Below the pieces are notes generated by a model. It did not search any database. It had not been told where the DNA came from and saw only the letters and a list, made by a program, of their open reading frames with translations. Below, one piece after another: positions 25,465 to 58,541 of a DNA stretch of 64,000 bases; position 1 is the stretch's first letter, and the number at the start of each line of letters is the position of its first letter. A program made the position numbers and the translations under genes. Where the stretch lies: NCBI RefSeq assembly GCF_016903815.1, contig NZ_CP069972.1; one strand, given 5' to 3'. This DNA comes from Escherichia coli. Lineage in GTDB: Bacteria; Pseudomonadota; Gammaproteobacteria; Enterobacterales; Enterobacteriaceae.

Positions 25465-25551
25465 GTTAGTTGAAAAGAGATTTCCTCCGGTCAGGGCCAC
25501 CCACTCTGTAACGGAACAGTAAAAAAACCGACCTCACCAGTCGGTTTTTTT
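25465..25551 (+). ncRNA. Candidate ~85-nt small RNA (repeat copy 2 plus terminator)
   Basis: TATTAT -10-like box just upstream; repeat core then strong terminator 25521-25551. Confidence 0.3.
25521..25551. terminator. Bidirectional Rho-independent terminator
   Basis: A7-AACCGAC-loop-GTCGGTT-T7. Confidence 0.65.
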
Positions 25552-25704
25552 ACATCTGTTGTTTCTCAAAATCCGTCCGACATGCCCGTCACACCGGGGA
25601 AACTCATGCTCTGAATCAGAACCAACCATCTCAACTTTGCCGTCTCCTGAAAAAACTGGCACATTCAGTTCGATAACTACCCATAAATACAGAGAGAAAA
25701 TCCG

Positions 25705-26027: not shown

Positions 26028-26180
26028 TTAACGTTTAACTTCGTAGGCTAACGTTGCCACAAGCACTGTGTTTCCCTGCTGGAGCCGGAGTCCGCAAAGC
26101 GAATCCCTCACCATCCAGACAAAACACAGAATCGTCACACAGATGACGATTAACATCATTAAAAACGTTCGCTGTGGCAT
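26028..26180 (-). CDS. pndA: Hok/Gef-family type I toxin, PndA-like (50 aa)
   Basis: Not in ORF track; translation MPQRTFLMMLIVICVTILCFVWMVRDSLCGLRLQQGNTVLVATLAYEVKR with GGAGG RBS; single TM plus conserved Cys typical of Hok family; hairpin 25996-26018 downstream. Confidence 0.8.
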   Translation of the reverse strand: MPQRTFLMMLIVICVTILCFVWMVRDSLCGLRLQQGNTVLVATLAYEVKR

Positions 26181-26212
26181 CATAGCCCCTCCATTGCCTT
26201 ACGGCGGTTATC

Positions 26213-26295
26213 GGGCTACTATAATGTTGTCTAGGCATTACAGTAGAGCCCTTGGTTGATTGATAAAAAAATCTCCAGGGGCTTTCTGCTGTATA
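26213..26295 (+). ncRNA. Candidate Sok/PndB-like antisense RNA region over the toxin leader
   Basis: TATAAT-like box at 26220-26225; lies antisense to the expected mok/pndC start upstream of pndA; exact ends not determined. Confidence 0.35.
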
Positions 26296-26510
26296 CCGTC
26301 CACAAAACGCTTTCGGCATACAGCCTCAAGCGCCCGCAGCTATTCTAACGACTTTCGTATCGGTAACAATCCTTTTAACCAGCCCCACACATCTTTCGGA
26401 CATGGTGAGTACAAAAGGCTGCGCTCTCGAACATTTGACATTGAAAATGATTCAGGTGACAGCCTGAATGTAGCAGGAGTCCCCGTCCTTCTGGCATAGA
26501 AGATGTCAAC

Positions 26511-26591
26511 GGGCTACTATAATGTCGTTCACGCATTACAGTAGAGCCCTTGGTTGATTGACAAAAATCTCCAGGGGCTTTCTGCTGTATA
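26511..26591 (+). repeat. Second copy (~85% identical) of the sok-like segment
   Basis: GGGCTACTATAATG...CATTACAGTAGAGCCCTTGGTTGATTGA...TCTCCAGGGGCTTTCTGCTGTATA shared with 26213-26295. Confidence 0.6.
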
Positions 26592-32539: not shown

Positions 32540-32572
32540 GGCCGCGCCGGATTCTGGCGCGGCCTTTTTTTT
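32540..32572. terminator. Bidirectional terminator between convergent trbC and nikB
   Basis: GGCCGCGCC-loop-GGCGCGGCC then T8. Confidence 0.65.
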
Positions 32573-35270: not shown

Positions 35271-35280
35271 CGGAGAATCC

Positions 35281-35613
35281 TCAACCTTCCATTAACTGTT
35301 TACGCAATGTATTTGTAAGTTCGGTTATGGCAACAAGCACTTCTGCGTATTCCTTGTCACCGGTTCTTTTTCCCTGAACAAACAGATGCTTCTGCATCCT
35401 TCCCAGTCTCATTAACTCCTTCAGAAAAGCATCATCTGTCCGGGAGTTAATTCGCTTATTCAGTGCTGCATTTCGGATGTAAGCAGATACAGTAAGTCCG
35501 GAATCTTCAGCATTCTTACAGATAGTTTCATCCTCATCCGGTGAGAACCGGACCGCTCTCAGGATCGTCTTTTGCCGTCTTTCACTACCACTTCTTTGAC
35601 GTTTATCACTCAC
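35281..35613 (-). CDS. nikA: NikA, RHH relaxosome accessory protein (110 aa, GTG start)
   Basis: AAGGAG 7 nt upstream of GTG 35613; protein VSDKRQRSGSERRQKTILRAVRFSPDEDE...; track ORF extends 29 codons further without RBS. Confidence 0.85.
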   Translation of the reverse strand: MSDKRQRSGSERRQKTILRAVRFSPDEDETICKNAEDSGLTVSAYIRNAALNKRINSRTDDAFLKELMRLGRMQKHLFVQGKRTGDKEYAEVLVAITELTNTLRKQLMEG

Positions 35614-35619
35614 GGTCAG

Positions 35620-35720
35620 CTCCTTACTGGGGTGTCGGGGCGAAGCCCTGACCAGGAGGCAATTGTATAATCGCGCGTGCGCGGTTATACAATTGCACAT
35701 CCTGTCCCGTTTTTCAGTCC
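35620..35720 (+). other. oriT: oriT: 10-bp inverted repeats flanking a GC core (35661-35694) and IncP-like nick motif ATCCTG|T (predicted nic 35704/35705, + strand)
   Basis: AATTGTATAA-N14-TTATACAATT followed by GCACATCCTGTCCCG directly upstream of nikA. Confidence 0.65.
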
Positions 35721-37118: not shown

Positions 37119-37159
37119 ATTGTCTCCTCATCGTCACGACTGCCGGGTCAGCCAGGTCA

Positions 37160-37495
37160 TTTCCCGGAGGAGCGAAGCTCCTTCTGCCGTCCGGGTCTTC
37201 GGGGATTTCCCCGCAGTGGACCTTTCCGACGGGGGACGCTCACCACGTCACGGGGCAGTTGTCCGGGGGCAGACGCAAAAGTTTTTGACGCCTGCGGCAA
37301 AAAGTTTTGTGGCTGGTACATCTCTCCCCTGGACGACTGAAACGGGATGTGGTCATGTATGTACCCCCGGAAAGTCCGTCTGCGGAGAACAGGCCGCAGT
37401 GCGGCGGCAGACAGGCAGAGACAGCTGCGCCATCAGGCGCAGTGGCCTTACACACCGTAAGGTGTGCAGGGAGCGCCGCATACGGCGCGACTGAA
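37160..37495 (-). repeat. Family-A GC-rich structured repeat, copy 1 (Frpo/ssi-like single-strand promoter candidate)
   Basis: ~335 bp highly similar to 40553-41055 and 46898-47400; many internal inverted repeats. Confidence 0.6.
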
Positions 37496-37592
37496 GAAAA
37501 ACGACGGCACAACAATGGCATGTGGTGGTCACTGGCACACCACTCCCGCACAGGTGAAAACAGAGAAAACCGCACGACATTTACAACCAAAA

Positions 37593-40069: not shown

Positions 40070-40504
40070 TCATTCCGGACAGCGACGCAGTGCCAGCGCG
40101 AGCGCTTTCATCTTCCAGCCTTCCGGCGTGCGGTACATCACCTTCCAGTAGCCGTCGATGAACACATAATGGAAGCGCACCTCTTCAGTGCTTTCCGTGG
40201 CGATGGCCTCCCTGAAAGAACGGTACTCACGCGCCTCACTGTCCATCCGGAAACCACTGTCACGTCCGTAATAAGCCGTCACACCGTCCACCGGGTTCTG
40301 AAGCGTATGCCCGGCGGGTTTGTCGCAACGGGGACCGAGGCAACGGATATCACCGTGTTCAACCAGGGCTTCGGCCTGCTGACCGGTGGCATAGTGGGTA
40401 TGCAGGATGCGACCGTTCCAGGTCGGCTCACCGTGCAGGTGGCAGTAAACGGTACGGAACACCCCGTCGCGGCAAAAAACGGAAATCGTGCTGCTGACTG
40501 TCAT
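40070..40504 (-). CDS. Hypothetical protein (144 aa)
   Basis: AGGAG before ATG 40504; first gene downstream of repeat A2; His/Cys-containing, no motif recognised. Confidence 0.5.
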   Translation of the reverse strand: MTVSSTISVFCRDGVFRTVYCHLHGEPTWNGRILHTHYATGQQAEALVEHGDIRCLGPRCDKPAGHTLQNPVDGVTAYYGRDSGFRMDSEAREYRSFREAIATESTEEVRFHYVFIDGYWKVMYRTPEGWKMKALALALRRCPE

Positions 40505-40552
40505 GAAAACGTCTCCTTCTGCTGAATCAGGTCGCCGGGCCGACCGGTTGCT

Positions 40553-41055
40553 CCCCCGGAGGGGCGAAAGCCCCTTCTGCCGTCCACTTCTTCGGGGTTT
40601 CTCCCCGCAGTGGACCTTTCCGATGGGGCAGCGACTGCCACGGCACGGGGCAGTTGTCCGGGGGCAGACGCAAAAGTTTTTGACGCTTGCGGCAAAAAGT
40701 TTTGTGGCTGGTACATCTCTCCCCTGGACGGCTGAAACGTGTTGTGGCCGCTTCAGCCCCCGGAAAGTCCACAGCGGGGAAACAGGCCGCAGGGGGGGCG
40801 GCGGAAGGGCAGACAACTGCGCCATCAGGCGCAGTTTCCTTACACACCGTCAGGTGTGCAGGGAGCGCAGGTCACGGCGCGACAGAGGCGGCGCGACCGG
40901 AACGGTCGCTGCAAGCCTGGTTTTTCAGACATCGGACCGTAGCGGCAGCCCGAAACCGCGCCAGCGGGTTCGGCGGAGACTGGCGGGTGCGCCAGCAGCT
41001 GCCTGTCGGAGTCGGGCCTGACGACCGGATGCCGCCAGGCAGCCGGGAGCCGAAG
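40553..41055 (-). repeat. Family-A repeat, copy 2 (Frpo/ssi-like)
   Basis: ~500 bp; near-identical blocks shared with copies 1 and 3. Confidence 0.6.
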
Positions 41056-41236
41056 GGTGTCCCCGCCCCCGGGAGTCAGAACAACAGAAACGACAAAACA
41101 GAAAAATGCCTCACACTATGACAGGCAGGAAGGGTAGCGCCGCAGGCGCGGCCCTCCTGTATTTCAGGCAGGCGTAAGCCTGCCAGGGTTTTCCGGGGGC
41201 CTGGCAGGCCATCCCCCCGCCGGAGCGGGGAGTAAA

Positions 41237-41737
41237 TCACCGACGGAACACATGACCGTCAATAAAGGTGAAGGAGTCCAGGAATAAATCCCGCGCATAC
41301 GCCTCATAGTCAAAATAGAGCGCCACCGTCTCCGGCACGTCAGCCAGCAGGCCGGTATCACTGACGAACTCAACCGCAAAAGCCTCCTCACTGTCAGCCT
41401 CGCCCCACCAGGCATCGCGGAAGCTGTCAAAATCCGTCTCACCGGTATCATCCACCCAGAGACGATAAGCCTCTTCGCAGCCTTCATCCCGCGCCTGGCG
41501 GAAGCCTTCAACCCAGGCCCAGTTGATATGGCATTCAGAGGCCATATTCCCCGGGAATCCCTCATAATCCTGAAACATCAGTTCCGGGTCGGTTTCATCC
41601 TGGTGAAGGGCACGGCAGGCGGCGAAAAAGTCGCGTTCATCATCAAACGTTGTCAGGTCAAACCAGCGGCCAGCGATGCTTCCACAGTTGTATTTGTGCC
41701 AGGTTCCAACGTATACAGCAGGTGCAACAACAGACAT
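41237..41737 (-). CDS. ardA: ArdA antirestriction protein (166 aa)
   Basis: MSVVAPAVYVGTWHKYNCGSIAGRWFDLTTFDDERDFF..., acidic; matches ArdA as I recall it; ATG 41737 internal to track ORF. Confidence 0.9.
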   Translation of the reverse strand: MSVVAPAVYVGTWHKYNCGSIAGRWFDLTTFDDERDFFAACRALHQDETDPELMFQDYEGFPGNMASECHINWAWVEGFRQARDEGCEEAYRLWVDDTGETDFDSFRDAWWGEADSEEAFAVEFVSDTGLLADVPETVALYFDYEAYARDLFLDSFTFIDGHVFRR

Positions 41738-41761
41738 TCCCGAATCCTCCATAGTCACATG

Positions 41762-42095
41762 TTCTGCGACACCGGGCGGTGCCGTGCCTCCATCTTTGCC
41801 GGGCCTGCAGGGATGCAAGGGCGCAAGGGAAGCCGCAGCCCGACGCACACGGCTGGCGGGAGTTGGAGGGTGAGACCGCGAAATCTGAGCGGGTGAACGA
41901 CCGGAAAATCACGGCAGACGGGAAGGAGGGACCGGGTGACCGCAGCGGTTCATCTTACCTTGCATCCCGCCCGCAGAAGCCCGGCTACGATGGAGGCACG
42001 GCACAGCCCGCACACGACACGGCGGCCACATAACTGAAAACCCACAAGGCCATGCCCCGCATGGCCGGGTAAAAGCGGAGCCGGCGGCGACGTCC
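41762..42095 (-). repeat. Family-B GC-rich structured repeat, copy 1 (Frpo/ssi-like), upstream of ardA
   Basis: ~335 bp near-identical to 51055-51387. Confidence 0.55.
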
Positions 42096-42198
42096 TTATT
42101 CCGGCGAGAGCAGGGAGCACACCGCATGATCTCCAGACCACCCCTGGAACGAAACGATCATGACCGGCATGTCCCTGCGTAAAATATACATGCCTGGT

Positions 42199-42795
42199 TC
42201 ACCGGAGAATATCTGTGATATCCACAAGTTTTCTGTCGCGCAGCCAGTCCTGCGCTTCACGCACCACACAACTGTCCGGTTTCACCGCTTTCAGCGATGA
42301 TGCCAGTCGCTTGATCAACATCACCAGTTCCCGTGTCTGTATGTCCGGCATTGTCTCCGGCGGAGCAGGGGGACTCTCATTTCCGACGCTCATCCCATGC
42401 GCTTCCAGTGTGGCACGGACAAACCAGGCGGCATCGACCAGTTGCTGTCCAATCCAGGCCAGATCGGCATTTCTGTCACGGGCTGCCATTCGCTCGCCCG
42501 ACAGCGCCTTGCTGATATGGCTGCGCACCAGATTATCCAGGAGTGCCTGCGCTTCTTCCGGTGAAAAGCCACCTGGTATCTCTGTGCGCAACAGCCCTTT
42601 CCTGTACAGAAGCTGCAGCAGATCAACCTGCGACCGCACAGCAACTATCAGTACATAACGGACAACATTCGCACTGGCAGTGGTTTCTGTATCATTCAGC
42701 AGTTCTTCCGGATCGTTCCCCCCGGTGTTGCAGAGCAACGGCAACAGAGGTCGCATCCACGCGGGAACCTGGTATTTTTCGTCTGATTTCATCAT
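42199..42795 (-). CDS. Hypothetical protein downstream of psiA (~198 aa)
   Basis: Start adjacent to psiA stop (operon-like); no motif recognised. Confidence 0.45.
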   Translation of the reverse strand: MMKSDEKYQVPAWMRPLLPLLCNTGGNDPEELLNDTETTASANVVRYVLIVAVRSQVDLLQLLYRKGLLRTEIPGGFSPEEAQALLDNLVRSHISKALSGERMAARDRNADLAWIGQQLVDAAWFVRATLEAHGMSVGNESPPAPPETMPDIQTRELVMLIKRLASSLKAVKPDSCVVREAQDWLRDRKLVDITDILR

Positions 42796-43511
42796 ATTAC
42801 GTTCTCCAGCTTGTTCGGGATCATCCACTGCTCAAGTGCACGTACCTGTACCGGTGCACCACGACCGGCCTCACCGGCTTCAAAAATCAGCCGCCAGAGT
42901 GGTTCCTCCTGCCAGAAAAACCGGTCAAATGATGACAGTGATGGAAAACGCCCGCACCACCCCCAGAAAATCGTTTCCAGATCATGCTCCTCAACAACAC
43001 CAGACCAGCGGGACAACCAGCTTCCGACCGTGGCGGGAGTATGAAACGCAAGGTCAATCTGCGCCTGAGCAAAACATGTCTGGTATTCCAGTTCCCGTCG
43101 TTCTGCCTCACGTTCCCGCTGGCGGCTGTATTTCTGCTCTGTCAGCGTGGTTTTCTGACGACGACGCTCACCTTCACGAAAAGGCACGGACGGGAACAGA
43201 CGGTGCCCCGCATCGGATGGCAGGGGAAGAACACAGACTTCCCCAAAACTTTCAATCAGTTTATCCACGGCAGCCAGCCACAGGAGACGGTTGCCATGAA
43301 ATTCCTCCTTCGTCAGCGCAGGGGCAAAAAAGCGGAGATCGGTCAGCGAAATCCGGCGACTGCCATTCAGGCAGCGAAAGAAAGCGGTGGCATAAGGCCA
43401 TGCTGAAAGTGTGCGTCCCTGACGACGACGTTGTTCTGTGACAGCCACCGCCTGCATGGCGGCCTGTTGTTCTGCGCTGAGGGGGATCAGTGCCCGTGAA
43501 CGTGCGCTCAT
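42792..43511 (-). CDS. psiA: PsiA (239 aa)
   Basis: [22 protein letters not shown]...; overlaps psiB stop; psiB-psiA order as in F/ColIb. Confidence 0.85.
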
Positions 43512-43945
43512 GCCTGACCTCCTTCTGCCATCAGGATATGGATGATGTCGTTAACACTGTATCCCTGCGCATCCAGTGTCGCGGCAAGCGCCAGCGTGTG
43601 ACTGATCGCGACAGGCGTGAAGATATGTTGCACCTGAACGACGGCGAAAGGCTGTCCACCACCATTCACCAGAACCAGCATCCAGAGCTGAGAGACGTCT
43701 CCCGGCGAACATAATGCCAGGTGGAAACGTTCGTGGGCTGGCGTGAAACGAACCTGGACGGGGAAAAAGCCCCCGAACTCACTGCCATACTCTCCGTTCA
43801 TCACCCAGTTAGCCGGTGCGTCCACTTCACGCATCACCTCGTGAGTGAGATTACGGCGCATATCGCTTCCCGCAGCACGGATATCTTCATATTCCTGTGC
43901 GTTCATGGACTGCAGGGCATTCAGGGTCAGTTCAGTTTTCATCAC
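43508..43945 (-). CDS. psiB: PsiB, plasmid SOS-inhibition protein (145 aa)
   Basis: [28 protein letters not shown]... closely matches PsiB as I recall it. Confidence 0.9.
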
Positions 43946-43996
43946 GGTATCTCCCTTGCTGCCGCCCCGTCTCCGGCGGGGCGGTGTGGTTGTTCA

Positions 43997-45961
43997 TCAG
44001 GCGGCATCAGCCAGGTTAGCGGTGTGTTCAGTGGCATCCGTCTGTGGACGTGGTGCACACATCCAGCCAGGCACCCAGCGGTTGTCTTTCATATGGAACT
44101 CTGCATGTTCAGCCGCATCGCCTTTCTTCATTTTCTCCGCGTCCCGTGCGGCACCGGACAGTCCGGCCTCATTCAGGGCTGCGATAATCTGCGGCTTTTT
44201 CAGGTGTCCGAAGAAGTTTGCTTTTGTCGGCTGCCACCAGTCGCGCATGTGAAAGCCGATGGCGGTTTCCAGCGAGTCCAGCGGACTGCGTGACGTGTGA
44301 CCACACTCGCGGGTCTGGACACCGTTAAGACTGCACGCGGTACAGAAACTGAGCAGGGATAACAGCACCTCCTGGCTAAGTGACAGGAACGTCGTCATAT
44401 CCCGTTCCCATCCTTCCGGCAGCAGGGCAGCAAAACGAGAGTGTTCTGCCATCAGCGCCATGAATGCGGCACCTTCCTTCCCTGACGGTGCATCGCTGGT
44501 CAGCGCATAATGCTCACATTCCAGGCGAATTCTGGCGGGACTACTATGCGCTTTGCTGTCAAACACATTCAGGCAGAGCGTCCATGCCAGCAGTGCCAGG
44601 GATTTGTCCGGTTGCTGCATCAGTGCTGCCTGGACTGCCAGCGTGCGCTCTGAGGTCAATTTAGTCAGCAACGGCAGACTAATTTCCTCCACTGACGCGC
44701 TCTCCAGCCCCTGTTCCGTGCGGTCAGCGTCGTCAGCCACATCATCCTCACTGCGCAACTGCACACCACGCTGGATACACACATTACCGTAACGCCAGGA
44801 CACCACCACGCCACTTCCGGCACGCATCTCCGGCGTCCACGCCCTGACCTTCGCCATGCAGTCAATCAGCTTCATTTCTGCTGCCAGCAGGTCAGATTCC
44901 TCACACTGGTTTTCCAGCGAGTCGTAACGAGCCATCAGTTCGTTCAGACGTTCGTCTTCCGCCTCCGTCAGCACCGCTTCCGGCTCCGGCAGGTTGCGGT
45001 ATGCCCGGGCATCTTCACGGCACTCACCGACAGGCTCCATGCGTCCGGCGCACCATTCCCAGCCTTCGGCTTCCCGAAGGAACTCTGCGACAGCCTGGAG
45101 TTTTTCCAGCAGGGCGGCATCGAGCGCCACGCGGTCGACATAACCGTCCCCGTCATCGCTGAACAAATCGGTGCGCAGTTCGTCTGGCGAGAAGGCATCA
45201 GCCCCCACGAAGCGGAATTTACTGTTCCCCGCCACCGCCACTTCACTTTCGGTCACCAGACGACGAATGGTCTGTACTTCCGGTTTACCGCCCCATCCCG
45301 ACTGGCAGGCGGCTTCAAACACCTGCACCTGACGCGCGGTGTCGTTCTCCAGCGCCAGCGCCTGACAGTGCTCTGTGGTGATGCGGTCTTCTGCCAGCGC
45401 ATCGAGGATAACCGGAGCAAGGTCTGCCAGTTTCAGCATTCGCTGAACGTGGCGGGGTGAATAGCCCAGCAAATCACCGATTTGTGCAGGCGTTTTGCCT
45501 TCCTGCGCCATTGCGCGGAATCCGGCAATCTGTTCGGCAGGGTGCATATCCCGACGCTGACCGTTCTCGGTCATCGATGCGGCAGTCGCCAGCTCCTGCG
45601 GAATGACCTTCACGCGTACAGGCCAGTCAGCCGGAAGGATGTTGCGCTCTGCCAGCATGTTGAGTGCTGCCAGTCGGCGACCGCCTGCGGCGACAGCGTA
45701 ACGGTCACCAGGCAGGGTATGCACGACCAGATTCTGCAGCAGTCCGACGCCCTTAATGGACTCCGCCAGTTCGCTGACGGACTCCGCAGAATACGGCACC
45801 GTGCGCACATTCAGCGGTGATTTAATCAGCGAGGCCAGCGGCACGCTCACTTCCTCCGTCTGCGCCAGCAGGGCAGACAGGACAGTTTCCTGCGTTTTTA
45901 CAGATTTACGGCTTGCTTTGCGGGTGGTTTCTGGTTCACACTTCGTTACAGGCATAATCAT
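43997..45961 (-). CDS. ParB/Srx-like nuclease-domain protein of leading regions (654 aa)
   Basis: N-terminal ParB-like domain (GLLQNLVVH...AGGRRLAA); long acidic C-terminal region; between psiB and ssb. Confidence 0.75.
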   Translation of the reverse strand: MIMPVTKCEPETTRKASRKSVKTQETVLSALLAQTEEVSVPLASLIKSPLNVRTVPYSAESVSELAESIKGVGLLQNLVVHTLPGDRYAVAAGGRRLAALNMLAERNILPADWPVRVKVIPQELATAASMTENGQRRDMHPAEQIAGFRAMAQEGKTPAQIGDLLGYSPRHVQRMLKLADLAPVILDALAEDRITTEHCQALALENDTARQVQVFEAACQSGWGGKPEVQTIRRLVTESEVAVAGNSKFRFVGADAFSPDELRTDLFSDDGDGYVDRVALDAALLEKLQAVAEFLREAEGWEWCAGRMEPVGECREDARAYRNLPEPEAVLTEAEDERLNELMARYDSLENQCEESDLLAAEMKLIDCMAKVRAWTPEMRAGSGVVVSWRYGNVCIQRGVQLRSEDDVADDADRTEQGLESASVEEISLPLLTKLTSERTLAVQAALMQQPDKSLALLAWTLCLNVFDSKAHSSPARIRLECEHYALTSDAPSGKEGAAFMALMAEHSRFAALLPEGWERDMTTFLSLSQEVLLSLLSFCTACSLNGVQTRECGHTSRSPLDSLETAIGFHMRDWWQPTKANFFGHLKKPQIIAALNEAGLSGAARDAEKMKKGDAAEHAEFHMKDNRWVPGWMCAPRPQTDATEHTANLADAA

Positions 45962-46013
45962 CCCCTTATAATTGCTTATGTCCTGCCGGACGTTCGCGCG
46001 TCCGGCACCTCTC

Positions 46014-46247
46014 TTACTTAAGAATCCCGAAATCCCTGATGTACTGGTTCATCCAGTACCCGGCACAGTCCTCAAAATTCCAGGAGCGCCAGATCAACGT
46101 GCCATCCTGACGGACAACCAGGCGAAAATGCGTTCCCTGATCATCCTCGATAAAGACGTTCCGGTACTGTGCGGCAACGGCTTCCGCCTGTTCGCGGGTA
46201 AAGGAGCCGTCCGGCAGTCCCTGAAGTATTCTGAAATATTCGCTCAT
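46014..46247 (-). CDS. Hypothetical small protein (77 aa)
   Basis: GGAG 8 nt before ATG 46247; between ParB-like gene and ssb. Confidence 0.4.
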
Positions 46248-46304
46248 CCTCATATCTCCGGTGATGCCCCGCACAGGGCGGGGCGGTTGTCACAGTCAGC
46301 CCGA

Positions 46305-46832
46305 TCAGAACGGGATGTCGTCTGAAAACCCGTAATCCTCCCCCTCCGGCGGTTGCGGCTGAGGCTCTGGCTGCGCGGCCTTACGTCCACGGCCTTTCGT
46401 TTTCGCGCCACCTTTTTTCGTCGCGTCAGCACTCTGTGGCTGCCCATTCTGCTGAGGCTTCGGTTGCGCCTGAGCGTTCTGCTGTGGTGCACGTCCCAGC
46501 ATCTGCACGGTGCCCGTGGTCTTAACAAGAATTTCAGTGACGTAACGGGTGATACCGTTATCTTCCCAGCTACGGGTGCGAAGCTGACCTTCGATGTAGA
46601 CCTGCGCACCCTTGCGCAGATATTCACCTGCCACTTCCGCGAGCTTGCCGAACAGCACCACGCGGTGCCATTCCGTCTGCTCCCGCATCTCCCCCGTCTG
46701 TTTGTCACGCCAGCTTTCTGATGTGGCCACCTGCAGGTTTGCCACTGCGCCCCCGTTGGGGATGTAACGGACTTCCGGATCATTGCCCAGACGCCCGACG
46801 AGGATGACCTTGTTGATACCACGTGCACTCAT
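46305..46832 (-). CDS. ssb: Plasmid single-stranded DNA-binding protein (175 aa)
   Basis: OB-fold N-terminus [18 protein letters not shown]; Q/P-rich linker; acidic C-terminal DDIPF tail. Confidence 0.9.
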
Positions 46833-46897
46833 AAGAACCTCCTGACTGAAAGATGTGAGATAAACCGGATACCGGCGACGGGACGTTCATGTGCCCC

Positions 46898-47400
46898 TTC
46901 AGAGGAGCGAAAGCTCCTCCTGCCGTCCACTTCACAGGGGTTTCTCCCCGCAGTGGACCTTTCCGATGGGGGCCCGTTTACCGCCTCACGGGGCAGCTGT
47001 CCGGGGGCGGACGCAAAATTTTTTGCCGGGTTCATGGCTAAAAATTTTGTGGCCGGTGCATCTCACCCTGGACAGATGGAACGGGAGGGGGTTACGTCTG
47101 CCCCCCGGAAAGTCCACAGCGGGGAAACAGGCCGCAGGGGGGGCGGCAGGAGGGAGGACTGCTGCGCCATCAGGCGCAGTTTCCTCACACACCGTCAGGT
47201 GTGCAGGGAGCGCAGGTCACGGCGCGACAGGGGCGGCGCGACCGGAACGGTCGCTGCAAGCCCGGGTTTTCACGCATCGGACCGTAGCGGCAGCCCGAAA
47301 CCGCGCCAGCGGGTTCGGCGGAGACTGGCGGGTGCGCCAGCAGCTGCCCGTCGGAGTCGGGCCTGACGACCGGATGCCGCCAGGCAGCCGGGAGCCGAAG
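46898..47400 (-). repeat. Family-A repeat, copy 3 (Frpo/ssi-like), upstream of ssb
   Basis: ~500 bp near-identical to copy 2; right edge is where the intron begins. Confidence 0.6.
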
Positions 47401-47406
47401 TGGGCG

Positions 47407-49747
47407 GTGCGACAGGAAGTCGCTTAACGTATTGTTTTACATTGATAAAACCAGCTATCCCATTAGCTGTAGCCTACCGGGACAGGCGTTGCCGGCAACG
47501 GCGGGGTCTGAAGCTCCCGGGACAACGAGAGCCGGGCGTCAGCCCGGGTAATGCCCCGTGAGGGGCTTTACCTTGCTGCAAGCATCATGCGGCAGGAGAG
47601 CAAGGCTGGTCAGAAGGGTTAACACATGTGAACTGTTGATAAACACCGTTATCGGCAACAGGCCAAAGATGCTGACAGGCCTGAACCAAAAGGTACGGGG
47701 TCCGGTTGCTACCTCGCGCACAGGGAGCACATGGGCGCAGAGACCCCCGGTGAAGAGACAGAACCCGCCCTGACCCTCTGTATGTTAAGCGGAACCTGGT
47801 AAACCCGTATCGCTGCCTCACAGGCAGGTGAACCGCAAGGAACACTGTTAGCGGTGCGGGCATAGGAGGACGGAAAAAGCGAATGCCCGGCTGTAATAAC
47901 CGGGATACGGGGCAGGTTCCCCGACGCGAAAGCGGGCAGACTTCCGTCTGGTCTTTAATTGCATGAAAAGCTGTAAAGCAGTCAAAAGGATATCAGCGAG
48001 ATGAATACACACATCAGTGTGTCCACGATACCCCACCCGACAGGCTGGCACACCATAAACTGGAAAGCATGCCATGCCCGGGTGCGAAAGCTACAGTTAC
48101 GGATTGCAAAGGCAACCCGACAGCAACAATGGCGGCAGGTCAGAGAACTACAGCGCATCCTCACCCGCTCATTCTCCGGCAAAGCCGTGGCTGTCAGGCG
48201 TGTAACTGAAAATACCGGTAAAAGGACACCCGGTATTGACGGAAAAATATGGCACACACCGAAGGAGAAATGGGAAGGAATATGCAGCCTGAATCTGTGT
48301 GGTTACAGGCCACAGCCACTACGGCGAATACATATCCCAAAATCAAACGGCAAAACGCGACCGCTGGGCATACCCACAATGAGGGACCGGGCCATGCAGG
48401 CACTGTGGCTGCTGGCTCTGGAACCCGTATCCGAGACCACTGCTGACCATAACAGCTATGGTTTCAGACCAATGCGCAGCACGCATGACGCCATTGAGTC
48501 CATTTTTCTGCGGATGAGCCAGAAAGTATCGCCCAAATGGATACTGGAGGGCGATATTAAAGGGTGCTTCGATAACATCAGCCATGACTGGCTGCTTTCC
48601 CATATTCCGATGGACAGGAGACTGCTTAAAAAATGGTTGAAAGCAGGTTACATGGAAAGAGGCGTGTTTAACCATACGAACAGCGGGACACCGCAGGGAG
48701 GCATCATATCCCCTGTTCTCGCCAACATGGCTCTGGACGGACTGGAGAAGGAACTGATGCAAACGTTCAGGAAAAGTGGTTATCACAGTGCAAAGCACCA
48801 GGTGAATTATGTGAGATATGCTGATGATTTCATCTGTTCAGGCAGCTCCCGTGAATTGCTGGAAAATGAGGTCAGACCACTGATTGCAGCTTTCATGCGC
48901 GAACGAGGGCTGGAACTGTCGGAAGAAAAAACAGCGATCACACATATAGATAAAGGCTTCGACTTTTTAGGGCAGAACGTCAGGAAGTACAACGGTAAAA
49001 TGCTGATTAAACCGTCGAAGAAAAACCTGAAGAACTTCCTCTGTAAAGTCAGAGAAATAATTAAACGCAATCCGACGCTCCCGGCATGGAAACTGATAGG
49101 CCAGCTAAACCCGGTGATCCGGGGATGGGCTACCTATCACCGACACGTCGTGGCGAAAGAAACATTTAATTATGTCGACACCCAAATCTGGCGAGCTATA
49201 TGGCGATGGTGTGTAAGACGGCATCCCCGGAAAGGATTGCGGTGGATCGCCGGACGATACTTCTCCTTTGAAGGCAGGCGCTGGATCTTTAAAGCCATAA
49301 CCCCGGAAGGGAAAATTCTGACACTCTTCCGGGCAATGGAAACACCGATAAAGCGCCATATAAAAATCAAAGGCGAAGCAACACCATACACCCCCGGAAT
49401 GGAAATCTACTTTGAACGTCGTCTGGATCTAATCTGGAAAGGCAAATCAAAGAAGATGAAGACAGTAGTTCAACTCTGGAAGAGGCAGGGGAAACACTGT
49501 CCGCAGTGCGGACAACTCATAACCAACCAGACCGGATGGAATATACATCACCGGATCAGGAAAGTTATGGGCGGCAGTGACGAACTGACCAATCTCGAGT
49601 TGTTACATCCGAACTGCCACCGACAGTTACACAGCAGGGAAGCCGGTGCTCACCGAAAGCACTTATAAAGGCTTGAGCGGAGTGCGGGGAAACTCGCACG
49701 CTCCGTTCTTAGGGGGCGGCGGCGCAGCAATGTGCCGCTGCTACCCG
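47407..49747 (+). mobile_element. Group II intron (boundaries approximate)
   Basis: 5' GTGCG at 47407; ORF in domain IV; domain V-like 34-nt hairpin 49675-49708; domain VI-like stem to ~49747. Confidence 0.8.
48001..49668 (+). CDS. Group II intron-encoded reverse transcriptase/maturase with HNH endonuclease (555 aa)
   Basis: RT motifs incl. YADD; maturase X region; C-terminal HNH (HCPQCG...HHRIRKVMGG...HPNCHRQLH). Confidence 0.9.
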   Translation: MNTHISVSTIPHPTGWHTINWKACHARVRKLQLRIAKATRQQQWRQVRELQRILTRSFSGKAVAVRRVTENTGKRTPGIDGKIWHTPKEKWEGICSLNLCGYRPQPLRRIHIPKSNGKTRPLGIPTMRDRAMQALWLLALEPVSETTADHNSYGFRPMRSTHDAIESIFLRMSQKVSPKWILEGDIKGCFDNISHDWLLSHIPMDRRLLKKWLKAGYMERGVFNHTNSGTPQGGIISPVLANMALDGLEKELMQTFRKSGYHSAKHQVNYVRYADDFICSGSSRELLENEVRPLIAAFMRERGLELSEEKTAITHIDKGFDFLGQNVRKYNGKMLIKPSKKNLKNFLCKVREIIKRNPTLPAWKLIGQLNPVIRGWATYHRHVVAKETFNYVDTQIWRAIWRWCVRRHPRKGLRWIAGRYFSFEGRRWIFKAITPEGKILTLFRAMETPIKRHIKIKGEATPYTPGMEIYFERRLDLIWKGKSKKMKTVVQLWKRQGKHCPQCGQLITNQTGWNIHHRIRKVMGGSDELTNLELLHPNCHRQLHSREAGAHRKHL

Positions 49748-49946
49748 ACCAATAAAAGACAGCCAGAAACGGTGACAGTGTCACGGAATATCACACCTGT
49801 TCCCTGCATACAGCCATACACTACCTTCTGACCGGAAAGCCGGGCCGGCAGCGCCGCAGGCGCTGCACCCCGCGTTTCCGGCAGGCGTCAGCCTGCCAGG
49901 GGTTTTCGCGCGGGCTGACAGGCGGCCTCCACCGCCTGCCCCTGTA

Positions 49947-50138
49947 TCACCTGTTTCTGCTGCCCTGAAGGATGTAGTGACCGCCCAGGAAAACCGCCTG
50001 CTGATTCGCCACAAAATCGCAGATTTCATCAACAATCTGCGCGGTGGTGAGCGGTTTCTGCCCCATTTCACGACGCCGCGCATTAATCACGGCCCTGTAA
50101 TTACGCAGAATTTCGCGGGTTTCTGTGCTGATATTCAT
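49947..50138 (-). CDS. Hypothetical small protein (63 aa)
   Basis: Start overlaps stop of upstream ORF (coupling); 3' end runs into the repeat flank, so it may be truncated. Confidence 0.3.
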   Translation of the reverse strand: MNISTETREILRNYRAVINARRREMGQKPLTTAQIVDEICDFVANQQAVFLGGHYILQGSRNR

Positions 50139-50557
50139 GACATCGTCTCCCCGTCCAGCGCCTGCAACACAACGTCCATTGCTTCGAGTTCCTCCCTGAC
50201 GAATGCGTCACCGTCGCCCCCGTTCTCACTCCCGACGGCATACAGGCGCTTCATTTCACTACCTGCCAGCGCCATCACTTTTTCCAGCATCACCGCCGGG
50301 ACTGTCACATGACGGCTGGCGCGCTTTTCTTCCATCAGTTCATTGACAATATCGGAAACAACTCTGTCACATGCGCCATATACAAAAGCATCGTCCAGCC
50401 GCTGCATGACGGTTTCCAGCTCATCGTCTGACAGGTTCCAGTCCTGGGCTATGTGACGCACATCCCCACGGGTCAGCACCACGGCAAAAACGCATTCACT
50501 GTCCGGCACGTCTGTATCCAGTACATCGCGGATGATTTCTTTAACAGTACAGTACAT
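50135..50557 (-). CDS. Hypothetical leading-region protein (140 aa), paralogue of 52260..52694
   Basis: Shared blocks with the 144-aa ORF (LSD[DH]E.[IE]TV...RL[DE]D; VTVPA); downstream of klcA-like gene. Confidence 0.5.
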   Translation of the reverse strand: MYCTVKEIIRDVLDTDVPDSECVFAVVLTRGDVRHIAQDWNLSDDELETVMQRLDDAFVYGACDRVVSDIVNELMEEKRASRHVTVPAVMLEKVMALAGSEMKRLYAVGSENGGDGDAFVREELEAMDVVLQALDGETMS

Positions 50558-50603
50558 GTTCTCGTCTCCTTTACAGGGGCGGCATTGCCGCCCCGTCCGT
50601 TAA

Positions 50604-51029
50604 TCAGTCAAGTGCCGCGTAAATCGCGTTGCATTCGGGGTGAAATTCGATGTGGCTCCACAACTGCGCATCACGCATCCTGTACAGGTGTGTCAACCCT
50701 GCATCCCCGCTGTCGTGGTACAGCCACAACTGGCGGTTAATCACAAGGGAGGTAAGGATGATGCCTGCGGCATCAGCGCTCACGGTACGGTCAAACCAGT
50801 TTGCACCGTTCACCATGTGGAAACGGTCGCCATCCGGCATCATGTAACCGCCACCGTCCGGCAGGCGGATGAAGTGCCAGAATCCGCCTTCATATTCCGG
50901 CATCATTTTTTTCGCCAGCGCGTATACAGACGCTTCGGCATACAGAAAATCCAGGCCAAACAGGTAAGGCAGAAAAGACAGACGGTCGCACTCTTCAACG
51001 TTCAGAGTGACAGGTTTCGCATATTGCAT
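50604..51029 (-). CDS. klcA: KlcA/ArdB-family antirestriction protein (141 aa)
   Basis: Conserved blocks [44 protein letters not shown] as in KlcA/ArdB. Confidence 0.75.
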
Positions 51030-51054
51030 GATGTTTTCCTCCGTTGTTCACATA

Positions 51055-51387
51055 TTCCGCGACACCGGGCGGTGCCGTGCCTCCATCTTTGCCGGGCCTG
51101 CAGGGTTGCAAGGGCGCAAGGGAAGCCGCAGCCTGACGCGCACGGCTGACGGGAGTTGAAGGGTGAGACCGCGAAATCTGAGCGGGTGAACGACCGGAAA
51201 ATCACGGCAGACGGGAAGGAGGGACCGGGTGACCGCAGCGGTTCACCTTACCTTGCAACCCGCCCGCAGAAGCCCGGCTACGATGGAGGCACGGCACAGC
51301 CCGCACACGGCGCTGAGGCCACATAACTGAAAACCCACAAGGCCATGCCCCGCATGGCCGGGTAAAGCGGAGCCTGCGGCGACATCC
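51055..51387 (-). repeat. Family-B repeat, copy 2 (Frpo/ssi-like), upstream of klcA-like gene
   Basis: Near-identical to 41762-42095. Confidence 0.55.
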
Positions 51388-51444
51388 TTTTGCTCTTTCC
51401 GGGGACCGGCTGGAAAAGGCGGAGATTTTTCCCCGCCAGCGTCA

Positions 51445-52929: not shown

Positions 52930-53613
52930 TTACGCAGCCTCCGGTTCAAACCAGTTATCATTCGCGGCCCCCTGCTGCATGGCCCGTTGCACGGCGGTCA
53001 GTCGTTGCTGTCCGGCACGGTGATACTGTTCAAGCAGCTCGATACCGATATACCGGCGTCCGGACTGAAGAGCGGCCACGCAGGTTGATCCGCTGCCTGC
53101 AAACGGGTCCAGCACAATCGCGTTCGGATGTGTGAAGCTCTCAATCAGTGGTTGCAGGCTGGTAACGGGCTTTTCCGTCGGGTGATGGCGATTGCCCGAA
53201 TATTTCCAGCCCAGCACGTCCGGCAGCGGGTTTTGTGGCAGACGTGGACGGCCTTTTGCCAGGATGTAGGCACATTCGTGGCGATAGCCCACATATGCGG
53301 CCTTCGATGTGTAGTTTTTGGTGAAGACCAGGTGACCAACAACGCTGAATCCCGCATTTTTCCAGGCAGACATAAAACGATCGACGCGATTCCAGCCATA
53401 GAAGCTCACCATTAACGCGTCTTTTTTGAGTACGCGGTACATCTCATTACAGGCCGGTTGCAGCCATTCATCGGTTTTATCGCCGGCAATGGTACGCCCC
53501 TGACGGTCACGAAAACCGACGAGGTACGGCGGGTCGGTGAGGATGAAATCAATGGCGTTATCAGGGATACGGGCCATAACATCGATGCAGTTACCGAGGA
53601 CAAAACGGGACAT
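52930..53613 (-). CDS. Orphan DNA methyltransferase, N6-adenine/N4-cytosine type (227 aa)
   Basis: Motif IV ILTDPPY near N-terminus; motif I-like DPFAGSGST near C-terminus; no restriction gene adjacent. Confidence 0.85.
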   Translation of the reverse strand: MSRFVLGNCIDVMARIPDNAIDFILTDPPYLVGFRDRQGRTIAGDKTDEWLQPACNEMYRVLKKDALMVSFYGWNRVDRFMSAWKNAGFSVVGHLVFTKNYTSKAAYVGYRHECAYILAKGRPRLPQNPLPDVLGWKYSGNRHHPTEKPVTSLQPLIESFTHPNAIVLDPFAGSGSTCVAALQSGRRYIGIELLEQYHRAGQQRLTAVQRAMQQGAANDNWFEPEAA

Positions 53614-53996
53614 ACCAAACTCCTTCTCTTACAGAGGGCACCGGGAGGGCACCCCTGTGGTGCCCGTTCCCCGCTGCCTGTGGGCTGTTCACCGCGTCCG
53701 GTAACGGGTCAGGCCGACCGTGGAATACCGCAGCCGTCGTCTTTTTGACGGCAAGGCTATGCCGCGAAAGCGGCTTGAAGGGCGTTCATCAGAAAAGGGC
53801 GACGGGCTGGCGTACACTGTCACCGACGCCAGCCGGGAGCGGTAAAAGCGCCCGTCCCGTGCCCGGCCGGACGCGGACACTGACCACAGGCAGCGTTTAT
53901 GCCGCGCCGCGTCAGCCGGCGCAGTAAAAAGAGGAGCACGGCGACATCCTTTACCGGAAAAGAAACGGGCGGTTGCCCGCCCGTCTCCGTCATACT

Positions 53997-56000: not shown

Positions 56001-57271
56001 TGTTTGCACTGGCTGATATCAACAGTTTCTACGCCTCATGTGAAAAAGTTTTCCGCCCGGACCTTCGCAACGAACCGGTCATCGTACTCAGCAATAACGA
56101 TGGCTGTGTGATCGCGCGCAGCCCGGAGGCAAAAGCCCTTGGCATCAGAATGGGGCAGCCCTGGTTTCAGGTGAGACAAATGCGCCTGGAGAAGAAAATA
56201 CATGTATTTTCCAGCAATTATGCGCTGTACCACAGCATGAGCCAACGGGTTATGGCTGTTCTGGAGTCGCTTTCTCCCGCAGTTGAGCCCTACTCAATTG
56301 ATGAAATGTTCATTGATTTGCGGGGGATAAATCATTGCATCTCTCCGGAGATTTTTGGTCATCAGCTCAGGGAACAGGTAAAGAGCTGGACAGGACTCAC
56401 CATGGGGGTGGGCATTGCGCCTACAAAAACGCTGGCTAAAAGTGCCCAGTGGGCAACAAAGCAATGGCCACAGTTTTCCGGTGTGGTCGCGCTGACGGCA
56501 GAAAACCGTAATCGGATCTTGAAGCTACTGGGGTTGCAGCCAGTTGGTGAGGTCTGGGGAGTAGGACGCAGACTGACGGAAAAGCTGAATGCGCTGGGTA
56601 TTAACACAGCACTGCAGCTGGCGCAGGCTAACACGGCATTCATCCGGAAAAACTTCAGCGTCATTCTTGAGCGTACGGTACGCGAACTCAACGGCGAGTC
56701 CTGCATATCTCTGGAAGAAGCACCGCCGGCAAAACAGCAGATTGTCTGTAGTCGCAGTTTTGGTGAACGAATCACAGACAAAGATGCCATGCACCAGGCT
56801 GTTGTTCAGTATGCAGAGCGGGCCGCAGAGAAACTACGTGGGGAGCGTCAGTATTGCCGGCAGGTGACGACATTTGTACGGACATCCCCCTTTGCAGTAA
56901 AAGAACCCTGTTACAGCAATGCCGCTGTGGAAAAGCTTCCATTGCCCACACAGGACAGCCGGGACATTATTGCCGCAGCATGCAGAGCGTTAAACCATGT
57001 CTGGCGTGAAGGGTACCGCTATATGAAGGCAGGTGTCATGCTGGCTGATTTCACACCATCGGGTATAGCGCAGCCGGGATTATTTGATGAAATCCAGCCC
57101 CGTAAAAACAGTGAAAAGTTAATGAAAACACTCGATGAACTGAACCAGTCGGGAAAAGGGAAAGTGTGGTTTGCGGGGCGAGGAACCGCCCCTGAATGGC
57201 AAATGAAACGGGAAATGCTTTCTCCTGCGTATACCACCAGATGGACAGATTTGCCAGTAGCCCAGTTATGA
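56000..57271 (+). CDS. impB: ImpB, UmuC/MucB-like Y-family polymerase subunit (423 aa)
   Basis: MFALADINSFYASCEKVFRPDLRNEPVIVLSNNDGCVIARS... Y-family N-terminus. Confidence 0.9.
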   Translation: MFALADINSFYASCEKVFRPDLRNEPVIVLSNNDGCVIARSPEAKALGIRMGQPWFQVRQMRLEKKIHVFSSNYALYHSMSQRVMAVLESLSPAVEPYSIDEMFIDLRGINHCISPEIFGHQLREQVKSWTGLTMGVGIAPTKTLAKSAQWATKQWPQFSGVVALTAENRNRILKLLGLQPVGEVWGVGRRLTEKLNALGINTALQLAQANTAFIRKNFSVILERTVRELNGESCISLEEAPPAKQQIVCSRSFGERITDKDAMHQAVVQYAERAAEKLRGERQYCRQVTTFVRTSPFAVKEPCYSNAAVEKLPLPTQDSRDIIAAACRALNHVWREGYRYMKAGVMLADFTPSGIAQPGLFDEIQPRKNSEKLMKTLDELNQSGKGKVWFAGRGTAPEWQMKREMLSPAYTTRWTDLPVAQL

Positions 57272-57292
57272 ATATGTAATCCACCCATAATA

Positions 57293-57366
57293 TTGTTATC
57301 CTGTTATCCTGCTATCTTGTTATCTTGTTATCTTGTTATCTTGTTATCTTGTTATCTTGTTATCTT
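57293..57366. repeat. Upstream array of ~9 direct 8-bp repeats (TTGTTATC): centromere-like iterons
   Basis: Tandem unit read directly. Confidence 0.8.
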
Positions 57367-57379
57367 AATTAATCTATAA

Positions 57380-57490
57380 ATCAAATACTTAACAACTTGC
57401 TAAGTTGTTAACATAACAAAAATAATTGCATGGTTCGCGTTCAGATGGCAATATTAAGTTGTTAACTTAACAGCTTAATATGAGGCTATA
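57380..57490 (+). promoter_or_regulatory. par promoter/operator region with palindromes
   Basis: TTAACAACTTGCTAAGTTGTTAA and TTAAGTTGTTAACTTAA upstream of parA-like start. Confidence 0.4.
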
Positions 57491-58117: not shown

Positions 58118-58416
58118 GAAATAGAGCAAACACTTCACCTCGTGACGAGGCAGCATTTATTAACGGTGGCACGGCTGGCCTTGATAATACCAAAAAGTCA
58201 TCAGATAAATCATCGGTTGTAAGCAAAGCAAAACCAGTGAGTATTTCTTTTTTTGAAGAAAACCTAAAAGACATTGATGCCCTTATAACGGCTGAGATGG
58301 TTTCAGGTAAAGGCAGAGTGAATCGTTCTGATGTTGTCAGGGCGGCGGTAGAAGCACTTAAAACACTATCAAAAACAGAGGTATCACGATTGATAGCAGA
58401 AGTAAAACAAAGATAA
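58114..58416 (+). CDS. ParG-like centromere-binding protein with C-terminal RHH (100 aa)
   Basis: Translationally coupled to parA; C-terminal GRVNRSDVVRAAVEALK RHH-like. Confidence 0.6.
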   Translation: MRNRANTSPRDEAAFINGGTAGLDNTKKSSDKSSVVSKAKPVSISFFEENLKDIDALITAEMVSGKGRVNRSDVVRAAVEALKTLSKTEVSRLIAEVKQR

Positions 58417-58420
58417 CACC

Positions 58421-58486
58421 TTGTTATCTTGTTATCTTGTTATCTTGTTATCTTGTTATCTTGTTATCTTGTTATCTTGTTATCTT
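58421..58486. repeat. Downstream array of ~8 direct 8-bp repeats (TTGTTATC)
   Basis: Same unit as upstream array. Confidence 0.8.
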
Positions 58487-58541
58487 CAATGTATTTTAGG
58501 ATGACCTATGTTGAATAGAACCTAAAACAAAACAAATATTA

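Follow-up and report, generated by a model that had tools for sequence, protein, structure and literature searches.

Leading region, anti-restriction genes and the family-B repeat

Judged from its sequence, the window (the whole 64-kb stretch of Escherichia coli DNA that was analysed, from contig NZ_CP069972.1) is the leading region of an IncI1 plasmid; its best plasmid match is typed IncI1/B/O, MOBP and MPF_I. The nikB and nikA genes lie at 32571-35700, and the leading-region genes are all on the minus strand, with transcription toward oriT. From this nikAB/oriT layout and the known IncI1 arrangement, we infer that the plus strand of the window is the transferred (T) strand, which would enter the recipient first. 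The region contains ardA (41237..41737, minus strand, 166 aa; Pfam ArdA PF07275, 6.3e-30), which is called ArdA in the pDETEC47 annotation, and a klcA/ardB-type antirestriction gene (50604..51029, minus strand, 141 aa; Pfam Antirestrict PF03230, 3.1e-26), with ATG start codons at 41737 and 51029, respectively. Pfam was used for both proteins, as ArdA and KlcA are without an NCBIfam model. The remainder of the klcA operon (49947..50557, minus strand) consists of a DUF1380 gene (50135-50557) and a 63-aa ORF (49947-50138), according to the ORF list and the annotations of pDETEC47 and pESBL.

A repeat search of the whole window showed that family B occurs twice, at 41755-42054 and 51048-51347 (300 nt at 96% identity), with no third copy in the 64 kb. 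When one indel was allowed, the repeat grew to 41755-42100 and 51048-51390 (~95% identical), and these extended units, both oriented on the minus strand, were annotated by repeat search and alignment as putative class-2 single-stranded DNA (ssDNA) promoter modules: copy 1 (41755..42100) 5' of ardA, 87.5% identical to ssp2 of plasmid F, and copy 2 (51048..51390) 5' of klcA/ardB. Each copy ends 18-19 nt from the start codon of its gene and lies directly 5' of a minus-strand operon, 6.0 and 15.3 kb, respectively, from the nikA/oriT end. A motif derived from the family, CCTTGCA-N16-21-TAnnnT-N6-ACGGC, matched exactly these two sites (0.00 matches expected). The repeat search, this motif and the Pfam assignments together confirmed the original prediction that the only two family-B copies lie upstream of ardA and of the klcA/ardB-like gene.

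The upstream edge of each copy carries a terminator-like stem-loop, detected by a terminator scan on the minus strand. In copy 1 (42043..42061) it reads GGCCATGC-GGG-GCATGGCC with a T-rich run after it, is kept in all close family-B copies, and would, from its sequence, stop the ssb-psiB-psiA transcript ahead of ardA; its counterpart in copy 2 lies at 51336..51354.

Family A had been predicted to precede ssb and two unknown operons, and its three copies were indeed found there, all on the minus strand: 5' of a DUF4942 gene (37140..37500, 99% identical to pESBL contig L024:18563-18923), 5' of a hypothetical operon starting at 40504 (40510..41060) and 5' of ssb (46850..47400), the latter two identified by blastn and their pESBL matches. 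These copies match the Frpo1 region of F and the ssi elements of pESBL, and correspond to the class-1 promoters (Frpo/Frpo1-2 of F, Masai and Arai 1997, Couturier et al. 2023; ssi1-3 of ColIb-P9, Bates et al. 1999). As blastn (word size 7, E 1e-3) detected no similarity between A and B, the idea that B is a diverged family A was ruled out, and an assignment of B to class 1 was rejected because blastn gave no homology to Frpo or ssi1-3. A hexamer scan for class-1 -35 and -10 boxes passed no candidates. The class-3 promoter region (53614..53996, minus strand; hairpin at about 53672-53895, fold z -6.2) lies 5' of a 227-aa M.EcoGIX-type DNA methylase (52930-53613, minus strand; NCBIfam PRK13699) and is 98% identical to pESBL L024:4399-4775, directly 5' of the pESBL DNA methylase. 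By sequence comparison, all six pESBL ssDNA promoter elements were found in the window. The pairing of two class-2 copies with the two anti-restriction operons, among six hairpin-led operons, would arise by chance within the window alone in 1 case in 15, which is weakly significant.

Relation to published class-2 elements

The family-B copies are 88% identical over ~345 nt to pESBL L024:7012-7353 (5' of klcA) and L024:13955-14300 (5' of ardA), and 87-88% identical to the single copy of F (L004:12395-12737), which is 5' of the F antirestriction gene (yfgB/ardB). For pESBL, an IncI1 plasmid, Wen et al. (NAR 2025, PMC12672017) described six zygotically induced operons whose transcription starts were mapped by 5' RACE, with promoters of class 1 (ssi1-3/Frpo), class 2 (the klcA and ardA hairpins, defined by RNA-seq and 5' RACE) and class 3 (the M.EcoGIX hairpin). 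Induction occurred while the DNA was single-stranded and decayed after conversion, the highest transcription came from class 1, and by 15 min every one of the six operons had been induced, as seen by a method that the authors describe as lacking temporal resolution. In F, ssp2 drives the ardB homologue yfgB and is a roadblock to complementary-strand synthesis that is resolved by UvrD; its deletion led to faster conversion of downstream loci and halved PsiB output, and its replacement with ssp3, of equal strength and without roadblock activity, restored transfer only in part (Fraikin et al. 2026 preprint). The same element was independently identified as Frpo3 (bioRxiv 10.1101/2025.04.03.647016).

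The window shares with pESBL the plasmid family, the two positions of class 2 (5' of klcA and of ardA) and 87-88% identity, and like ssp2/Frpo3 its copies are predicted to form a long G+C-rich T-strand hairpin; the stem of the window hairpins holds candidate -35 and -10 boxes. It differs from pESBL and F in its mid-stem allele: the window copies carry 'v1', with a 20-nt non-template spacer and bulges on the non-template arm, instead of 'v2', whose spacer measures 15 nt and whose template arm has a 4-5-nt bulge. By analogy, the activity and roadblock behaviour of v1 are assumed to equal those of v2. The proposal that v1 is v2 with two arm segments swapped by inversion was dropped, as alignment scores did not favour it. 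Class 1 resembles class 2 in being a T-strand hairpin that imitates a double-stranded promoter, works on ssDNA alone, and heads a leading-region operon in the same orientation. It differs in being less G+C-rich, in its A/T-rich apex, in having no detectable sequence similarity to B, in its reported greater strength and reported priming, instead of blocking, of complementary-strand synthesis, and in heading ssb/psiB and unknown operons rather than anti-restriction genes.

Folding and covariation of the family-B hairpins

On the transferred (template) strand, copy 1 is predicted to form a 238-nt hairpin (41773..42010, plus strand, 67.6% G+C, dG -73.6) and copy 2 a hairpin of the same length (51066..51303, plus strand, 67.2% G+C), both from the ssDNA fold and a duplex view. 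The ssDNA fold of 41738-42110 had a dG of -94.2 kcal/mol (z -4.95) and that of 51030-51400 a dG of -92.9 kcal/mol (z -4.04), and none of 100 shuffles folded as well as the family-B copies. The T strand folds only 4-7 kcal/mol better than its complement, too small a gap for the energy by itself to identify the transferred strand.

With 16 close copies, whose stems do not vary and whose two alleles misalign, RNAalifold therefore found 0 compensatory pairs; this was resolved with diverged members. Among nine of these, the 45 pairs of the stem were paired in 89.6% of cells, compared with 34-42% when the partner was slid, and 12 pairs showed compensatory double changes, a covariation that none of 500 shuffles reached. 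The 21-bp basal stem of F ssp2 is identical to that of the window copies save for one position, a G-C pair in F that is a G.A mismatch in the window.

Candidate promoter boxes

The non-template (3') arm of both copies reads TTGCA(T/A)-N20-TACGAT-N6-A. In copy 1, the candidate -35 box TTGCAT (41960..41965, plus strand) was assigned from the conserved CCTTGCA, and the candidate -10 box TACGAT (41986..41991, plus strand) from the TAnnnT that is invariant in all family members; positions -12 and -10 of this box are mismatched against the template arm in the duplex view. The corresponding candidates in copy 2, assigned by motif and alignment, are TTGCAA (51253..51258) and TACGAT (51279..51284), both on the plus strand. 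CCTTGCA-N-TAnnnT-N6-ACGGC was present on the distal arm of the T strand in 32/32 copies examined, and neither TAnnnT nor the +1 A changes among family-B members, while the stems co-vary. From the conserved A located 7 nt past the -10 box, transcription of copy 1 is predicted to start at 41785 (minus strand), with an RNA that begins with A and has a 48-nt leader containing GGAGGA before the ATG at 41737; the klcA operon start is predicted at the equivalent A past the -10 box, 51078 (minus strand), giving a 49-nt leader. These boxes match the consensus weakly (3-4/6 at -35 and 4/6 at -10), and the non-template spacer is unusual, at 20 nt in the window copies versus 15 nt in F and in the majority of relatives; the box assignment could therefore be off.

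Distribution of class 2 in other plasmids

The class-2 element before anti-restriction genes recurs in pESBL, IncI-gamma/K, F, IncFII and more distant plasmids, so the arrangement is conserved in related plasmids, the point on which the original prediction had been open to refutation. In IncF, IncI and a Serratia plasmid, class 2 heads a variable anti-restriction slot containing klcA, klcA-ardA or ardA. That B stands 'specifically' before antirestriction genes holds in the window but is too strong across plasmids, as a second class-2 copy precedes the DNA-methylase operon in some IncFII plasmids, from Salmonella, Enterobacter and Citrobacter. Two class-2 copies of one plasmid tend toward the same core allele. 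In records that appeared to hold the element in 3-5 places, the extra copies before other genes were rejected, being self-complementary arm matches and one palindromic assembly artefact (L002).

At least 5000 plasmid records contain the family-B element. An exact 20-mer scan, with each species represented by one genome, yielded 9 contigs, 8 of which matched the B copies by blastn at 88% identity or more (L007 gave no match), and no distant relatives. Several of the 8 matching contigs are in non-enterobacterial genomes or MAGs, and are probably misassigned plasmid DNA. KlcA tblastn gave at least 5000 near-identical matches, with no diversity among the matches listed.

Evaluation of alternative explanations

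We consider it very probable that the two family-B copies are class-2 ssDNA promoters (ssp2/Frpo3) of the IncI1 leading region. An alternative that is compatible with this explanation, although we regard it as unlikely, is that class 2 has been selected mainly at the DNA level, as a roadblock or priming site for complementary-strand synthesis, and that transcription of ardA and klcA is secondary. The effects of ssp2 deletion and replacement on conversion, PsiB and transfer in F (Fraikin et al. 2026 preprint) favour this alternative, but the roadblock was demonstrated for the F allele only, and IncI1 has two copies, more than one barrier would require. The hairpin G+C content of class 2 (67%) exceeds that of class 1 (58-62%), yet that of the non-roadblock class 3 is about equal (66.5%). 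Furthermore, the promoter boxes, the +1 base and the Shine-Dalgarno spacing are all conserved, and a class-2 element always heads an operon, which also speaks against this alternative.

IncN leading regions have dispersed repeated upstream elements under repressor control: the CUP (conserved upstream) repeats of plasmids such as pKM101 place ardA and ardB, together with other leading-region genes, under a common type of control and, unlike class 2, are double-stranded promoters repressed by ArdK/ArdR. By this precedent, family B might be an ordinary double-stranded promoter and operator duplicated before two co-regulated genes, and the IncN ardA locus (L016) does carry ardR, with a different upstream region from which the class-2 motif is absent. 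We consider this explanation highly improbable for family B, since no repressor gene accompanies the element and no sigma-70 consensus promoter was found in the family-B regions read as linear sequence on either strand; in the duplex reading, AAAGAT or TTTTAT occupies the -10 position at the wrong spacing. In addition, it is the base pairing that is conserved, by the 12 compensatory pairs, and not merely the sequence, and the published induction on ssDNA with decay after conversion (PMC12672017) also argues against a double-stranded promoter.

There is equally little likelihood that B is a palindrome of selfish or structural origin, MITE-like or left as a scar by recombination, that happens to sit between operons with no promoter role. 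It is a long imperfect inverted repeat, is as widespread in plasmid records as noted above and has copies that exchange sequence within a plasmid. Nevertheless, in every lineage examined its orientation relative to the transferred strand is the same and it lies a short, similar distance 5' of the first gene of an anti-defence operon, its TAnnnT and +1 A do not vary with the stems, and transcription starts within the element are reported for pESBL (PMC12672017).

Proposed mechanism

According to the class-2 promoter explanation, the plus strand of the window, as deduced from the nikAB/oriT layout, would enter the recipient first as ssDNA during conjugation. Folding and comparison suggest that each B element on this strand folds into a 238-nt G+C-rich hairpin in which the gene-proximal arm would be the template and the distal arm a sigma-70-like non-template strand, TTGCA(T/A)-spacer-TACGAT-N6-A, with the -10 box placed within mismatches and an asymmetric bulge of ~5 nt between the boxes. 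By analogy with the 88%-identical pESBL and F elements, host RNA polymerase would start in the basal stem and leave the hairpin to transcribe ardA from copy 1 or the klcA operon from copy 2; with transcription leaving the hairpin on ssDNA, the anti-restriction proteins would be made before the complementary strand exists. Conversion to duplex, again as in pESBL and F, would destroy the hairpin and switch the promoter off. The family-B hairpins probably also stall complementary-strand synthesis until unwinding by UvrD, as their F counterpart does, and so would prolong the single-stranded state between the hairpins and oriT.

More tentatively, and with rather less than an even chance of being right as a whole, class 2 may serve as a portable head-piece for a variable slot of anti-restriction genes, one whose copies within a plasmid are homogenised by gene conversion, which forms a double roadblock in IncI1, and which depends on ssDNA through its bulge. 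The head-piece would stand before klcA, klcA-ardA, ardA alone or, in some IncFII plasmids, a methylase operon. The two IncI1 copies might act in succession, so that first a 15-kb and then a 6-kb oriT-proximal segment is kept single-stranded, and the conserved ~5-nt bulge between the boxes, on either arm, might be what makes the promoter dependent on ssDNA.

Discussion

The proposal that A and B are distinct promoter classes is supported by the published experiments on 88%-identical elements (PMC12672017). Of the distinct timing or strength suggested for the two families, only a difference in strength agrees with these data, class 1 being strongest in pESBL (PMC12672017). The family-B finding is a correct rediscovery of the published class-2 ssDNA promoters and was already known: a separate anti-restriction promoter class matches a late-2025 publication, extended in 2026 with the roadblock, and our result is therefore a validation and not a discovery. 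Our additions are small: the anti-restriction slot is variable in content, a methylase operon can be headed by a second copy, the bulge comes as two alleles, and two copies in one plasmid tend to be homogenised. These comparative details could guide a plasmid-wide survey and mutational tests of class-2 hairpin function. ssDNA promoters determine the set of plasmid genes that are switched on within minutes of entry by conjugation, and therefore influence the survival of resistance plasmids against the restriction systems of the recipient.

Location of the family B repeats in the leading region

A repeat search and Pfam matches bore out the original prediction that the two copies of family B precede ardA and a klcA/ardB-like gene, while family A precedes ssb and other genes. 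The family B copies at 41755-42100 (B1) and 51048-51390 (B2) were about 95% identical (96% over an ungapped 300 nt), and neither the repeat search nor alignment found a third copy in the 64-kb window. B1 ends 18 nt before the start codon of ardA, the product of which matched Pfam ArdA, and B2 ends 19 nt before the start codon of a 141-aa ArdB/KlcA-type protein (Pfam Antirestrict). The three family A copies lie 5' of a DUF4942 gene, a hypothetical operon and ssb, and blastn of the window copies found no similarity between the two families.

The 20 kb around the family B copies matched thousands of enterobacterial plasmids, and the best full-length plasmid match was typed as IncI1/B/O, MOBP, MPF_I. 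Its annotation and our ORF list placed nikB and nikA at 32571-35700 on the minus strand, followed on the same strand by the DUF4942 gene, hypothetical genes, ardA, psiA and psiB, a parB-like gene, ssb, the klcA-type gene, an orphan DNA methylase gene and parM. As the IncI1 strand that departs oriT beside nikA reaches the recipient 5' end first, the plus strand of the window would be the one transferred (the T strand) and would serve as template for the leading genes. This assignment combines the gene layout with the general rule of Samuel et al. (2024).

Several other elements were observed in the window. A group II intron on the plus strand, opposite to the leading genes, occupies 47451-49749 (Rfam D1-D4 and domain V-VI matches; ltrA ORF at 48001-49668), between the end of the klcA operon and the family A element 5' of ssb; an identical LtrA protein is encoded after the klcA operon in one IncFII and one IncI-gamma plasmid. 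The 8-bp unit TTGTTATC forms two arrays (57262-57406 and 58390-58518) with 1048 bp between them. Rfam matches to AgrB antisense RNA and sok antitoxin RNA at 25466-25553 and 26178-26335 indicated a hok/sok-type locus. A 63-nt repeat (89% identical) lies at 26207-26269 and 26505-26567.

Predicted hairpin promoters in family B

Each family B copy contains a plus-strand hairpin of 238 nt and 67% G+C (41773-42010 and 51066-51303), and folding of the surrounding regions gave a dG of about -93 kcal/mol, with z of -5 (B1) and -4 (B2). The gene-proximal arm must be the template, and the distal arm is therefore the non-template strand; it reads CC-TTGCA(T/A)-20 nt-TACGAT-GGAGGC-A. The -35-like box is completely paired in the hairpin, the spacer contains bulges, and positions -12 and -10 of the -10-like box lie opposite mismatches. 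When the B regions were read linearly, scans of both strands found no sigma-70-type promoter. A conserved A seven bases past the -10-like box predicts transcription starts at 41785 and 51078; the leaders would then be 48-49 nt long and include GGAGGA as a ribosome-binding site. A terminator scan identified a terminator-like stem-loop at the upstream edge of both copies, which would insulate each copy from the operon before it.

Correspondence to published single-stranded DNA promoters

Wen et al. (NAR December 2025, PMC12672017) identified six operons of the IncI1 plasmid pESBL that undergo zygotic induction; each was assigned a predicted hairpin promoter, and the transcription starts were located by 5' RACE. 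Their class 1 corresponds to ssi1-3/Frpo (our family A), class 2 comprises the pair of similar hairpins before klcA and ardA (our family B), and class 3 is the M.EcoGIX hairpin; class 1 was the strongest, and classes 2 and 3 were conserved in F. The F class-2 element was named Frpo3 in an independent preprint (bioRxiv 10.1101/2025.04.03.647016) and ssp2 by Fraikin et al. (2026 preprint), who reported that it forms a roadblock to complementary-strand synthesis, which UvrD resolves, and that this roadblock prolongs expression from ssDNA promoters between the roadblock and oriT. All six pESBL elements were present in the window, with identities of 88-99% for the A copies, 88% for the B copies and 98% for the class-3 region. 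Family B is a known feature, with experimental characterisation in near-identical plasmids, and our initial interpretation was largely correct: the distinct promoter class of distinct strength that it proposed has been found in the sister plasmid pESBL, where class 1 surpasses class 2.

We assigned 53614-53996, directly 5' of a 227-aa orphan DNA methylase gene (52930-53613), as the published class-3 ssDNA promoter because it shared 98% identity with the DNA preceding the pESBL methylase gene; its large T-strand hairpin spans about 53672-53895 (z -6.2). The records of pESBL, F and other plasmids annotate a 'hypothetical protein' of roughly 100 aa here; nearly all of this ORF falls inside the promoter, and the ORF is probably spurious. 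The 12-mer AAGGAYGTCGCC occurs on the minus strand at exactly three sites in the window (0.67 expected with one mismatch allowed), 42086-42097, 51378-51389 and 53940-53951; these sites delimit B1, B2 and the class-3 element on their upstream side.

Distribution and structural conservation of the class-2 element

The class-2 element was present in at least 5000 plasmid records. F and one IncFII plasmid each have a single copy, before the klcA/ardB homologue; IncI-gamma/K plasmids and pESBL resemble the window in having two, before klcA and before ardA. Distant members, which blastn barely detects or misses, were reached through diverged ArdA homologues. In Klebsiella IncFII(K) plasmids and in Salmonella pRSE40 they precede a klcA-ardA operon, in Salmonella, Enterobacter and Citrobacter IncFII plasmids a lone ardA that occupies the klcA slot, and in a Serratia plasmid (MPF_I) ardA. 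The antirestriction slot behind the promoter (L015:2521-3498, L018:2502-3486, L022:3019-3998 and L019-L021:3492-3998 in our locus set) thus varies among klcA (F, IncI1), klcA-ardA (Klebsiella IncFII(K), pRSE40) and ardA alone (some IncFII), and the flanking genes are syntenic.

The placement of the element specifically before antirestriction genes, as first proposed, recurred in these related plasmids but was not exclusive, as the IncFII plasmids of Salmonella, Enterobacter and Citrobacter (L019-L021) carry a second class-2 copy directly 5' of a DNA-methylase operon (L019:659-698, L020:620-925, L021:659-698), 83% identical to their ardA copy. This position is held by class 3 in F and IncI1, whereas it is held by class 2 in these three plasmids. 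A motif search found no class-2 element at the IncN ardA locus. The link to antirestriction genes is therefore strong, though not exclusive.

The T-strand motif CCTTGCA-N-TAnnnT-N6-ACGGC was kept in all 32 class-2 copies. Across nine diverged members, 89.6% of the cells in 45 stem pairs were paired, compared with 34-42% when the partner was slid, and 12 of the 45 pairs showed compensatory double changes, a result that none of 500 shuffles equalled. This pairing and these compensatory changes show that selection acts on the class-2 hairpin as a structure.

Alleles and probable homogenisation of the class-2 copies

Two mid-stem alleles were distinguished. In allele v1 (the window, the annotated plasmid pDETEC47 and about 1400 plasmid records), the non-template spacer is 20 nt long and bulges lie on the non-template arm; in v2 (F, pESBL and all distant members), the spacer is 15 nt long and the template arm has a bulge of 4-5 nt. 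As these bulges sit on different arms, an asymmetric bulge between the boxes is conserved and its arm is not; we infer that this bulge may make the class-2 promoter work only as a hairpin.

Comparison of the two copies in each of six two-copy plasmids (the window, pESBL (L024) and loci L001, L002, L003 and L012) showed the same core allele in both copies in four, involving three different alleles (v1, v2-CCCTGCC or v2-CAACGCC), and mixed alleles in two; the outer edges track position. Quartet comparisons grouped copies by plasmid at 29-33 sites, every one of them within the promoter core, and by position at only 6-7 sites, mostly at the outer edges. This division between core and edge sites suggests that gene conversion acts between the copies, which are 7-9 kb apart. 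The L002 record (NZ_CP041394.1, 99290-137828), labelled 'linear', contains the leading region twice, inverted around oriT, in what looks like an assembly artefact, and it raises apparent copy counts of the class-2 repeat.

The residual value of the family B finding lies in these comparative details; the small new points are the two mid-stem alleles, the sharing of alleles within a plasmid and the border motif.
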